A stretch of 64,000 bases of DNA from assembly GCA_964016885.1 (NCBI GenBank), contig OZ024740.1, forward strand, positions 149,110,001-149,174,000, written 5' to 3'. Of this stretch, positions 394 to 16,585 are shown in pieces. The stretch is from Eledone cirrhosa (lineage: Eukaryota). The notes under the pieces are model-generated. The model ran no database searches and was not told where the DNA came from. It worked only from the letters and a program-made list of their open reading frames with translations. Each line of letters opens with the position of its first letter. Positions within the stretch are counted from its first letter, which is position 1. The position numbers and the translations under genes were made by a program.

Positions 394-753
394 ATTTAGG
401 AACAGTTTAGGTATGATACATTTTATTACTAATTATATCTAAATGTTTCTTCTCTCTTCATAATGTATATATATATATATATATAAATGGAATAGAATGA
501 AACGAAATTTCATTTCTCACTCTTAGTACGGCAGTTACTTAAATGTAAGTATGCATGTATGTATACGTATATGTATACAGACGTACAGTAGTATGTATAT
601 ATATACATACATGCACACATATATATATGCACGTATCGGTTTACGAACATTTATTATAATGCTCGGTTTGTTTGTAAACAAACAAACAGCCCGAATTAAG
701 CTGTACAGTGTTTAGGCAACCACGTCACCTTTTTGTTCAACACTGACACAGGA

Positions 754-796
754 ACGATGTACTAGTTTCAAGGTTATTAGCTATCGTCAGCATCGC
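754..796 (-). ncRNA. Minimal type I hammerhead ribozyme
   Basis: Minus strand reads gcgatg CTGACGA tagctaataacctt GAAA CTAG TA catcgt. Confidence 0.8.
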
Positions 797-1182
797 ATAC
801 CTTCCTGCCAGATGGTTGAACGACTGAAAGTATATACTTTCCTTATGCATATTAACGGCTGAGCAGCCTAATTTGCATGTCGAGTGAGTTTAGTCGGCCG
901 GGCGCACTGAAAACGATAAATGGAATAGAATGAAACGAAATTTCATTTCTCACTCTTAGTACGGCAGTTACTTAAGTGTAAGTATGCATGTATGTATACG
1001 TACATACATATATGTATACAGACGTACAGTAGTATGTATATATGTACATACATGCACATATATATATATATGCACGTATCGGTTTACGAACATTTATTAT
1101 AATGCTCGGTTTGTTTATAAACAAACAAACAGCCCGAATTACGCCGTACAGTGTTGCGCCCGGTCGACTAAACTCACTCGAT

Positions 1183-1230
1183 ATGCAAATTAGGTGGCTC
1201 AGCCGTTAATATGCATAAGGAAAATATATA
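1183..1230 (+). promoter_or_regulatory. Putative snRNA-type promoter (octamer + TATA) upstream of the HHR
   Basis: ATGCAAAT at 1183-1190 and TATATA at 1225-1230. Similar spacing recurs at 2946/2988, 16491/16448 (-) and 12955/12995 (variant octamer). Function is inferred. Confidence 0.5.
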
Positions 1231-1264
1231 CTTTCAGACATTCAACCATCTGACCGGAAGGTAT

Positions 1265-1307
1265 ACGATGCTGATGATAGCTAATAAGCTTGAAACTAGT
1301 ACATCGT
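1265..1307 (+). ncRNA. Minimal type I hammerhead ribozyme, intact core
   Basis: acgatg CTGATGA t-agct-aata-agct-t GAAA CTAG TA catcgt: 6-bp stem I, palindromic stem III, GUA cleavage triplet. Confidence 0.88.
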
Positions 1308-1530
1308 TCCTGTGTCAGTGTTGAACAAAAACATGACGTGGTTGCCTAAACACTGTACGGCGTAACTCGGGCTGTTTGTTTGTTTACAAACAAACCGAGC
1401 ATTATAATAAATGTTCGGTAAACCGATACGTGCATATATATATATGTGTGCATGTATGTATATATATACATACTACTGTACGTCTGTATACATATATGTA
1501 TGTACGTATACATACATGCATACTTACATT

Positions 1531-1695
1531 TATATATATATATATATATATATATATATATATATATATATATATATATATATATATATATATATATATA
1601 TATATATATATATATATGTATGTATATATATATATATATGTATGTATATATATATATATATGTATATATATATATATATACATATATATATATAT
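1531..1695. repeat. (TA)n microsatellite
   Basis: Direct reading. One of many (TA)n tracts in the window. Confidence 0.95.
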
Positions 1696-1800
1696 AACGA
1701 AGGAAATGTGGTAAGGAACCAGATGGACCGTAACGCACCAAAGTACTCAATACTTAGTGTAGTAGAGTGAGTAATAGGAACGAGTAGGACTCCGACGGCT

Positions 1801-13250: not shown

Positions 13251-13271
13251 TAATTTTTATTTATTTATTTG

Positions 13272-15618
13272 TTAAAAGCCGATAACAGCAGCTGAAGTAT
13301 GGGAGGCACTGGCTGGCTGCACAAGGGGTAAATCGCCTGGTTTGGATGGTCTGCCCTATGAACTTTACGTACAGATGCCAGATTGTTCGGAGGCCTCTTG
13401 GCGGATGTCTACAGCAACTGGCAACAGAACGAGAGAATTCCCAGCTCTGTGAGCCGAGGAGCGGTGGCGCTGCTGAGAAAGGATCCGAACAAGGGGGATA
13501 ACATAGATAATTCCAGGCCCATAACTTTTCTAAATACAGAGTTCAAGATTTTGGCTAAGGTGCTAGCAAAGAGGTTGGCGCTTGTCGTTGGTGGTCTGGT
13601 AGGAGAGGCGCAGACATGCGCCATTCCCGACAGATCCATCTACGACAACCTCCACTTCATGCGATACATCGTGGAGCGGGTAGCTAAGGAACCTGACACG
13701 GGTGGGTTCTTGATAAATTTAGATCGTTATCTGGCGGCTGTCCTGAGGGCGGCTGGCTTTGGGCCCGTCTTCAGAGGCTGGATCGCTGCCATGCACAGCG
13801 AAATCTGCTCTGTGGAGAGAGTGAACGGTCACGTTTCGGAACCGTTCAACATCATGCGCTCGGTCCGCCAAGGATGTCCCCCCTCGTCCCTCTTGTACGT
13901 GTTGACTCTCGAGCCATTACTGCACAAACTGAAGATGTTGAGGGGGTCCCGCGCGAACTATGATGGGGAAGATCCGTGTCAGCATATGCGGACGATGTCA
14001 CCGTAGTGGTGTCGAACGCCAAACATATCGAGGCGATCGGCACTACACTAAGAGAATACGAAGCGGTGACAGGAACAATGATCAACCAGAAAAAGTCGGT
14101 GGGCCTGCAGCTCGGCACCTGGAGAGGTAGGTCCATGCAGTCCAACGGCGTCGTCGGGCGCTGGACGGACGGACCAGTTAAATTGTTAGGGGTCTGGTTC
14201 GGTCCGGACCTCCAGACGGACAAAAGCTGGGACGAGGTGACGAGCAGGGTGGCTTCTCTCACCCAGAAATGGGCGGAGAGGAAGCTATCCCTGAAAGGAC
14301 GAGCGGAGGTGGCTAACGCGTATATCGCGTCGGTCATCTACTACCGCCTGACCGTCGTACCTTGTCCTAAGCCCCGCCTGACTGCGCTGGAGCGTTTGCT
14401 CTTTCGCTTTTTGTGGAAGGGACGCGCTCCGATGGTCAGGCGGTCCATCTGCTGTCAAGACTCGCTACGTGGAGGGCTGGGCATGCCATGGCTAATGATG
14501 CGCAGACACGCGCACAGGCTACGAGATCTCCACCTCTTCCTCGACCGTGATCAGGTGTGGTCGTCGTTTGCTAGACGCGTCTTTCCCCAGCTCATCTCCT
14601 TGACGGAGCTGCAGTCCTGGGTCAAGCGAAGACCGAGAGGGAGCGCTTGGAGACTGGAAAGTCTTCAGGCGACAAAAACAGCCCTCGACCAAACGGGCAA
14701 TGTGATCGGTGGAAACTCCACCTTGGCGTTCTATAGATGATTAGTGGAGAGGAAGAGCGACGACGTACTTGGGGAAATTCTAGGCGTCGACGAAAATCAA
14801 CTAGCCAATCTCTTTGGAAGAACTTTCGGGCCGGGGTCTATGGACAACGTCCAGAAATCCCTGGCCTGGCAGTGCTACCGAGGGGTTTTGCCAGTTCGGG
14901 ATAAACTCTACAGGCATGGAGGTGCCATCAGCCGGGCATGTCCGAGATGCGCGCAGGGCGACGAAACCGTCCTGCACGCACTCGTCCAGTATCCGAGCAT
15001 TGCTGACTTGTGGGTTTATGTTGCGTGTAGAACGGTTCCGACTATCAGCTGAGTCCATCGTGAGGATTGTCCCGCCTTCTTCCTTTAGCCGGGAAGGGCA
15101 GGCAGTTTTTATCTGTCTGGTGGCCATGGCGAAAGAGATAGTATGGTGAACACGTTTGAAAGGGCTGAAGACGAGCACTTACCTCTTCGGTGATGCCCTG
15201 ATTAACCTTTTCAAATTTCATTTGAAAAGGAAAATCAGGGTAGAGAGGGAAGTGCTCTCTTCCCAGCATTTTGTTGAAAGAAGGGTGAGAGAAGCAAGTA
15301 TGGCCCGAGTGAATGGGCCTACTCTGAGTTTGTGTCTGTAAATTAAAGGTGGAAAACTGGGAGAGGGCACTTACCCTGGGGGTCAGGGTCACTGTGGCCT
15401 TTTAATGGGCTTTCTCCACAAATGTCTCTCGGAAGTCTCCCCCCTGTTTGGGAATTTTTCATTGTTATTTTTTTTATTACATCCTCTGTTTTTTTTTTAC
15501 ACGTTGAAAATACCCATTTGTACCGCCCTGACATTAAGGATAGTACAGAGGATGTAAACCCTTGTGGTTAATAAAGAAAGCATTATTATTATTATTTTTA
15601 TTATTATTATTATTATTA
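13272..15618 (+). mobile_element. L1/Tx1-clade LINE, 5'-truncated copy (RT + C-terminal Zn finger), degenerate
   Basis: RPITFLNTEFKILAK, VRQGCP, AYADD and CPRC...ETVLH motifs. (TTA)n tail. Homologous to 48096-50485. Confidence 0.92.
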
Positions 15619-15828
15619 ACAAGTTATCGTTATAGGTAATCCAGTTAGAGGTTGTGAGTACTCTGTATTGTGGATAGTTTTAACCTACGGCTTTGTTTGA
15701 CTCAACAAGATGTTTCCATAGTTAGGTAGCGAATTCGCGAGAATTCCTATGCAGGTTATACTTGGAGTAATAATAGTGAAAGATTGAAGAATAACATGGT
15801 CAGCTGTACGATAAGGGGCTTTATTTCA

Positions 15829-15941
15829 AGTATTAACAATTGTTTCATTGATCAGGTGAGTTTAAAGGCCGCTAATCACTCGAAGTTGCGTCACTCAACC
15901 TTAAATACAGTGTTTACCATTGATCAAATCCTCAGAATACT
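15829..15941 (-). ncRNA. Type I hammerhead ribozyme
   Basis: agtatt CTGAGGA t-ttgatca...tgatcaa-t GAAA CAATTG TT aatact. Confidence 0.82.
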
Positions 15942-16025
15942 GTAGAACATTATATTTTATTATTGATGTTATAGTTTTGATTCTACGCTGTATCTATATA
16001 TACCATAGCCATATATGAGTTCTCT

Positions 16026-16138
16026 AGTATTCTGAGGATTTGATCAATGGTAAACACTGTATTTAAGGTCGAGCGACGCAACTTCGAGTGATTAGCGGCC
16101 TTTAAACTCACCTAATCAATGAAACAATTGTTAATACT
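16026..16138 (+). ncRNA. Type I hammerhead ribozyme (inverted twin)
   Basis: agtatt CTGAGGA tttgatca...taatcaat GAAA CAATTG TT aatact. Confidence 0.78.
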
Positions 16139-16229
16139 TGAAATAAAGCCCCTTGCTGTACAGCCGACCATGTTATTCTTCAATCTTTCACTATATATAT
16201 ATATATATATATATATATATATACACATA

Positions 16230-16585
16230 CATACGCACATGTACGTATAGGTTATATCGAACATTAAAAAGAATGTTCGATTCGTTTGCAAATAAACGGC
16301 CCGATTTGAAGCTGTGCCGTGCCGGTGACCGATCGTAACCTGTTTGTTCAACACTGGCATTGAGGAACAATCAACATGTTTCTGGGTCATTACCTTCATC
16401 AAGATTGTATACCTCTCTGCCAGTCTGTTGAACAGTTGAAAATATATAGTATTTTCTTAAGTACACATCGGTTGAGTAGCCTCATTTGCATACCGAGTGA
16501 GTTGCGGCGAGCCTTGCCGAATATTAAAAATAAAATTAGAATTTTATTTCTCGCCATAGCACAGCTGATGCATTAATGTAAGTAT
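16230..16585 (-). mobile_element. HHR-bearing repeat family C (diverged relative of family A)
   Basis: Shares TGTTCAACACTG, GTTGAAC, GAGTAGCCT-ATTTGCAT-CGAGTGAGTT and ATGTAAGTATGCA with 485-3350. Confidence 0.8.
16367..16408 (-). ncRNA. Minimal hammerhead ribozyme, C3U variant
   Basis: acaatc TTGATGA aggtaatgaccca GAAA CATG TT gattgt. Stems covary relative to 1265-1307. Confidence 0.75.

Follow-up and report, generated by a model that had tools for sequence, protein, structure and literature searches.

In a 64,000-nucleotide stretch of the Eledone cirrhosa genome (GenBank assembly GCA_964016885.1, contig OZ024740.1, positions 149,110,001 to 149,174,000 of the forward strand; the window in what follows), short repeats carry, ahead of a hammerhead ribozyme, a TATA box and an octamer-containing 11-nt element that is letter for letter that of the host's own U6-class promoters. 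The roughly 20,000 repeats of this kind in the genome are non-coding hammerhead units with Penelope-type insertion and are of retrozyme type at the DNA level. As judged from sequence, the element and TATA box of each unit likely act as its own promoter, and a self-promoting retrozyme is considered probable whichever polymerase is involved; the fuller reading, in which RNA polymerase III (Pol III) would transcribe the repeats from the self-carried U6-class promoter with leaky termination, is given a probability of about 0.45. The order of octamer, TATATA, and hammerhead had been noticed in a preliminary description of the window, and that observation holds. The match to host promoters is the main addition made here and argues for a promoter more strongly than the case first presented, which was that motifs and spacing are kept while the sequence between them diverges.

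Nine hammerheads were found in the window by descriptor, and six of these, all minimal type I and belonging to families A, B, and C, have the layout, with the octamer (exact or with one mismatch) 87-89 nt and TATATA 46-49 nt ahead of the core; dinucleotide shuffles (n=20) gave 0-1 match each. The 146 matches of an Rfam scan of the window (E values up to 1) include no hammerhead family. The TATATA and core coordinates first reported (1225 to 1271, 2988 to 3034, 12995 to 13044, and 16448 to 16402) were reproduced, as were the predicted cuts after 1301 and 13077 and the 433-bp unit of family A, and two further family A copies with the layout were located on the minus strand (cores 790 and 2310). 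Some window cores depart from the proposed CUGANGA, with CUGAUGG at 3034 and UUGAUGA at 2310 and 16402. For family B the tandem unit stands, with a period between anchors of 438 instead of 437 bp, and the octamer is, as described, perfect at 12889 and altered in the copy at 12955 (one mismatch).

The genome scan for copy number that had been suggested gave 19,763 exact matches to the layout pattern in 3.0 Gb, compared with 4 for the reversed pattern used as a control. A pattern variant excluding most of family A gave 619 matches and 0 in the control, and exposed two lineages outside the window, E and F, with complete ribozymes downstream of the layout. Among 29 hammerhead-like matches in 54 arbitrary 10-kb stretches (540 kb), 27 are without the layout, some of which may be chance matches or both arms of a single palindrome; the layout thus marks one group and not all ribozymes of the genome. 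Other hammerhead families without the promoter layout lie in the window at 63791-63984, a near-perfect palindrome with one ribozyme per strand, and at 63318-63362, and their relatives are frequent in arbitrary stretches.

Host small-RNA promoters were compared with the repeats directly. The promoters of U6 (3 types), the best U6atac match, RNase MRP, and tRNA-Sec (2) all carry an ATGCAAATKAG-type element at -76 to -79 (7/7; five exact octamers and two with one mismatch) and a TATA box at -30/-31; lower-scoring U6/U6atac matches without element and TATA were treated as retrocopies. A proximal sequence element is expected where the host 11-mer sits, at about -77. Among the loci listed, the 11-nt element is absent at that position from all U1 (0/9) and U2 (0/7) loci, and it is likewise lacking at RNase P (1 locus) and at the signal recognition particle RNA loci listed (4 of 6). 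The U1/U2 promoters tested have TCAGT at -56 to -58 (9/9) and a TATA-like box, and an upstream TAATTA-like motif near -91. The RNase P RNA gene (upstream region L359) has the U1/U2-type TCAGT in place of the octamer, although the gene terminates in a run of T10. In the repeats, an ATGCAAATKAG-type element and TATA are present in all nine representatives (in B the K position is a C), and in lineages E and F the similarity to the host carries on into the 3' extension of the element. No exact match to an internal B box was found in four units, and A-box-like matches were loose only.

The relatedness of the families limits what their shared motifs can show. Families A and C align at about 70% identity across the unit, and B and C at 72-73% from octamer to core, so that on this alignment A, B, and C are one superfamily and not the three separate, independent families first proposed. 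Spacer identity between A/B/C, E, and F is 0.43-0.59 for the representatives, compared with 0.42-0.49 after shuffling, and the layout is therefore present in at least three lineages with unrelated spacers (A/B/C, E, and F). Only E and F have spacers near shuffle level relative to A, B, and C. The octamer-to-TATA distance is 42-43 in 9/9 representatives, which were themselves selected by the layout pattern, and 40 in short B variants.

Copies selected by other means were also examined. Among 30 family A loci chosen by the 19-mer following the cut, many of them from the same young arrays, the octamer is exact in 21/21 full-length copies and TATATA in 20/21. When F copies were chosen by the ribozyme alone, the element was present in 15/30, as opposed to 1/150 control windows, and the old F copies without it are mostly 5'-truncated. 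Family B has a tripled octamer, and its proximal module is exact in the 13/13 other B copies that keep it (4 not pattern-selected). In three sequencing runs (contigs of one sample), subfamily variants alone were seen and none reached 10% or more in octamer or TATA, a result that is not significant.

The ribozyme appears to be under selection, as far as can be judged from sequence, and its helices covary. An anchored count over the nine representatives gave standard pairs in 52/54 cells of helix I (strand permutation mean 36.6; 0/2000 reached 52), and helix III is fully self-complementary in 8/9, the sequences differing. Self-complementary helix III is a hallmark of dimer-dependent hammerheads (PMC4209133). 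The predicted extension of helix I reaches 30-37 nt upstream of the core (z -2.0, -4.2, and -5.0). If the host rule of TATA+30 applies, the plus A unit would start near 1255; the extended helix passes the start so predicted, and its long form could therefore exist only in read-through RNA. Circular monomers have predicted fold z-scores of -5.5 to -13 (4/10 folded; (TA)n inflates z).

Insertions are partial tandems in (TA)n whose 3' end is fixed, at unit position 378 or 433, while the 5' end varies. They show short microhomology at the junction, a tail on one side only, and usually an inverted truncated partner; the tail between the two internal 3' ends is 55 nt. Partial-tandem and inverted anatomy is known for Penelope elements (PMC8557442), as are internal reverse-transcriptase starts separated by a tail (PMC11167929), and the earlier suggestion of Penelope-type insertion is borne out in its anatomy: truncated partial tandems, inverted partners, an optional tail, and a microsatellite target. 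Units are about 413-540 bp, the length varying with (TA)n, and non-coding (in four units, the longest ATG frame measures 54-101 aa), and arrays reach 4-6+ units. Units inside young arrays are near-identical (0-1.8% difference), as would also be expected from unequal crossing-over if a satellite- or MITE-like repeat (MITE, miniature inverted-repeat transposable element) had spread by DNA-level processes with ribozyme and promoter as passengers; identity within and between arrays cannot separate rolling-circle copying from DNA duplication. Such a spread is nevertheless very improbable given that one end is fixed and the other truncated at random, that truncated partners are inverted, that the tail is one-sided and the targets are (TA)n, that the helices covary, and that a U6atac retrocopy is joined head-to-head with a B copy at its promoter end (L178:1271-1620), as if by template switching of a reverse transcriptase.

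Copies continuous across the cut site and promoter require a template RNA that spanned both, that is, a circle or an uncut multimer, and the template was likely one of these; uncut RNA is the main substrate in vitro (PMC11167929). In line with this, only 1 of the 57 mapped 5' truncations described below lies at the cut site. None of the window insertions has two same-strand hammerheads in direct tandem, which precludes monomer release in cis and makes them likely dead ends. Same-strand tandem arrays, a defining feature of retrozymes, are present elsewhere in the genome (L040-L046 and L057-L060). Coordinates of the features are collected in Table 1.

Table 1. Hammerhead repeats, candidate helper remnant, and host promoters used for comparison (window coordinates)
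Feature	Position	Strand	Details
Family A insertion 1, in (TA)n	485-1532	both	two minus units joined head-to-head to one plus unit
Insertion 1, first minus unit	485-917	minus	full unit
Insertion 1, second minus unit	918-1155	minus	5'-truncated, long 3' end
Insertion 1, plus unit	1155-1532	plus	5'-truncated, short 3' end (55 nt less)
Octamer of minus A unit	871-878	minus	TATATA 831-836, core 784-790, predicted cut after 760
11-nt element ATGCAAATTAG	1183-1193	plus	identical to host U6 (L121) and both tRNA-Sec promoters
TATATA of plus A unit	1225-1230	plus	42 nt from octamer start
Minimal type I hammerhead, plus A unit	1241-1325	plus	core 1271, palindromic helix III, predicted cut after 1301; predicted extended helix I reaches upstream of predicted start
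Family A (subfamily A2) insertion 2, in (TA)n	1901-3353	both	same inverted partial-tandem anatomy as insertion 1
Insertion 2 octamer	2390-2397	minus	
Insertion 2 octamer	2946-2953	plus	
Insertion 2 core	2310	minus	UUGAUGA
Insertion 2 core	3034	plus	CUGAUGG
Neptune-like Penelope remnant	8400-10452	minus	candidate helper class, not proven partner
Family B insertion	12600-13250	plus	inverted 5'-truncated piece ~12600-12721, then partial and full unit, period 438
Family B octamer modules	12879-12963	plus	three of 33 bp; proximal module mutated in window copy
Family B TATATA and hammerhead	12995-13112	plus	TATATA 12995, core 13044, predicted cut after 13077, extended helix I z -4.2
Family C single unit	16230-16585	minus	octamer 16484-16491, TATATA 16443-16448, core 16396-16402 (UUGAUGA)
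Family C ribozyme	16230-16585	minus	predicted cut after 16373, extended helix I z -5.0
Host U6-class promoters with octamer-containing 11-mer at ~-77	L120, L121, L122, L173, L174, L360, L361		upstream of genes

The candidate helper belongs to a Penelope clade that is taken here to be Neptune on the basis of its motifs. This Neptune-like family has young copies, open frames of up to 1,218 aa (139 scored), a (TA)n target, and two alternative 3' ends; Pfam support for its fragments in the window is weak. In its young copies (L315-L328) the 3' untranslated region contains a CUGACGA/GAAA core that escaped the strict descriptor; helix II is strong there, helix III is long, and helix I is interrupted. 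A second Penelope clade, with a C-terminal GIY-YIG domain, has left remnants in the window at 5202-7549, 20950-23383, and 57477-59277, two of them adjoined by a tRNA-Ser-like element (7578-7651 and 57105-57177). Copies of an L1/Tx1-like element occupy 13280-15600, 34700-37900, and 44700-50450, and the family B copy abuts one of these.

A number of observations weigh against Pol III acting from a self-carried promoter. The octamer-to-TATA spacing of the repeats is 40-43, never the host 46-48 (4-5 nt short), and such element-TATA spacing is tightly kept in insects (PMC1761439). Families A and B have a T-rich tract at the unit end; 8,973 of 19,086 family A junctions (47%) contain T6+ in the stretch needing read-through, and these runs are as long as host terminators, which range from T5 to T9+. 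The T6+ junctions nonetheless continue into the next unit, and T6+ lineages form long arrays. TCAGY is placed 26-27 nt ahead of TATA in A, B, and C, which is the position of TCAGT in U1/U2. These same features, namely the T6+ lineages, the spacing rigidly unlike that of Pol III genes, and TCAGY, would be accommodated by a somewhat less probable alternative in which the retrozyme cycle and self-carried promoter are the same and the enzyme is RNA polymerase II (Pol II), acting on a re-spaced U6-class element combined with U1/U2-type TCAGY. The T-tracts would then be harmless because Pol II reads the units, as in newt satellite 2, reported to be a Pol II unit with a small nuclear RNA (snRNA)-type promoter (PMC2220036 and PMC6765202). 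Pol III is favored over Pol II by the finding of the 11-nt element at Pol III-type genes only (7/7 versus 0/16 U1/U2 loci), by the absence of a counterpart to the U1/U2 TAATTA-like motif in the repeat units, and by the presence of TCAGY in only 5/9 representatives (A, B, and C), the E and F representatives being without it; where present, it may persist as an RNA stem. The T-run strand asymmetry expected under Pol III was not found in the units examined.

Other points on the same side concern the motifs themselves and the start site. Octamer and TATA both fall in predicted RNA hairpins, TATA is looser in F (many copies have CATATA, not TATATA), and young A copies are near-identical, so that conservation within the family carries little information. 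No sequence in common with A, B, or C was found in the Neptune-like family (15 loci, this being the one family tested). In a test set beforehand, 5' ends at the predicted start numbered 7/57 (p=0.29), a negative result. The 57 truncations were mapped within 116 nt ahead of the cut, from 70 loci among the first 100 of 1,452 matches (30 as listed and 40 picked as truncated-looking), after 13 loci not truncated in the span were dropped; 1 lies at the cut site and 14 just 3' of the octamer-side hairpin, a position noted post hoc. A clustering at the predicted start seen earlier by eye (6/11 truncations among 100 copies) was abandoned after this retest. The hairpins, the 14/57 truncations, which suggest that the octamer-side hairpin probably exists in the template, and the lack of any excess of 5' ends at the start are what would be seen if the motifs were not a working promoter, the arrays being co-transcribed from host or transposon promoters and the motifs kept for RNA structure, for protein binding, or as relics. 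This is considered unlikely, as the octamer is constant while its hairpin partner varies between lineages, the 11 nt are identical with host promoters, the spacing is fixed across unrelated spacers, and the octamer is triplicated in B.

The RNA-level steps, the polymerase, and the identity of the helper are inferred, and on the Pol III reading the cycle would run as follows. Only arrays with at least two same-strand ribozymes would serve as sources. Transcription would start about 16 nt ahead of the core of unit n, and a fraction of the transcripts would pass the unit-end T-tract and continue through the promoter of the following unit, n+1. Pairing of two ribozymes via palindromic helix III would excise a unit-length RNA, whose ends would be held by the long helix I and then ligated. 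For reinsertion, a reverse transcriptase/endonuclease of Neptune type would nick (TA)n, with priming at either of two internal A/U-rich sites, and copying across the junction would yield partial tandems, inverted copies, and promoter-keeping arrays. A more speculative and rather doubtful extension is that an old superfamily of circular-RNA parasites captured a gene-external U6-type promoter, which ordinary retrocopies would always lose, retained it within the circle cut by the ribozyme, and changed its spacing by half a helical turn so as to read through its own T-tracts, possibly by a polymerase switch.

In comparison with known systems, the class itself is established. The promoter of the Schistosoma hammerhead repeats is of the tRNA-like type, and that of newt satellite 2 consists of an octamer and a proximal sequence element and is not known to have a TATA box. 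Non-LTR retrozymes (LTR, long terminal repeat) have been defined, mussel included, with Penelope helpers proposed (Cervera and de la Pena 2020, PMC7229834), so that the novelty first suggested was overstated, and a Penelope origin of retrozymes has been supported (Li et al. 2026, bioRxiv 10.64898/2026.07.22.740005). The metazoan elements resemble the present repeats in their 150-450 bp non-coding tandem units (350-390 bp in mussel), type I hammerhead, short palindromic helix III, proposed circular intermediates, and proposed Penelope helper (PMC7229834). They differ in that, in the main text, neither paper describes a promoter or a cephalopod: the accessible text of PMC7229834 does not mention cephalopod, octopus, or TATA, and its two occurrences of 'promoter' include a passage on T7, while that of Li et al. 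does not mention promoter or TATA. For the E. cirrhosa repeats, the present analysis maps a promoter matching that of the host, together with two internal 3' ends and the inverted partners.

The Schistosoma repeats, which are similar to short interspersed nuclear elements, likewise have a Pol III promoter ahead of the ribozyme; after cutting it lies at the 3' end of the monomer, which makes tandem copies necessary (PMC6765202), and a monomer that carries its promoter through read-through was already described there. Their promoter is internal, whereas that of the Eledone repeats is of the gene-external U6 type with no exact B box. Newt satellite 2 shares the tandem hammerhead unit, the dimer-dependent ribozyme, and an snRNA-type promoter in the unit (PMC2220036 and PMC6765202), but is reported as Pol II, whereas the Eledone octamer and TATA match U6-class and not U1/U2-class host genes. 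Penelope-like elements share partial tandems, an inverted 5'-truncated copy, AT-rich targets, minimal ribozymes, and an optional tail between two internal reverse-transcriptase start sites (PMC8557442, PMC11167929, and PMC4209133); the Eledone repeats differ in having no open reading frame, a tail of 55 nt instead of 30-40, and no homology to the one autonomous family tested. Cassandra, Helenus, and Ajax are also non-autonomous retroelements borrowing a small-RNA-gene promoter, but they are of LTR type, lack a ribozyme, and carry internal sequence resembling 5S or tRNA (PMC10886601, whose accessible text does not mention TATA, octamer, or snRNA).

No captured U6-type promoter in ribozyme repeats was found in the literature searched, outside of which lay the primary newt and schistosome papers and supplements. 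The retrozyme class and the idea of self-promotion are already known, and the re-spaced host gene-external U6-class promoter appears new. How animal retrozymes obtain strong transcription is not addressed in the accessible text of the two class-defining papers (PMC7229834 and Li et al. 2026); here a candidate promoter is named by direct comparison with host genes and can be tested at the element, the TATA box, and the spacer length. The case also shows a route by which a retroelement could retain a gene-external promoter. As a by-product, the host U6-class promoter is defined (octamer element at about -77 and TATA at -30), which is useful for guide-RNA expression in this animal group.

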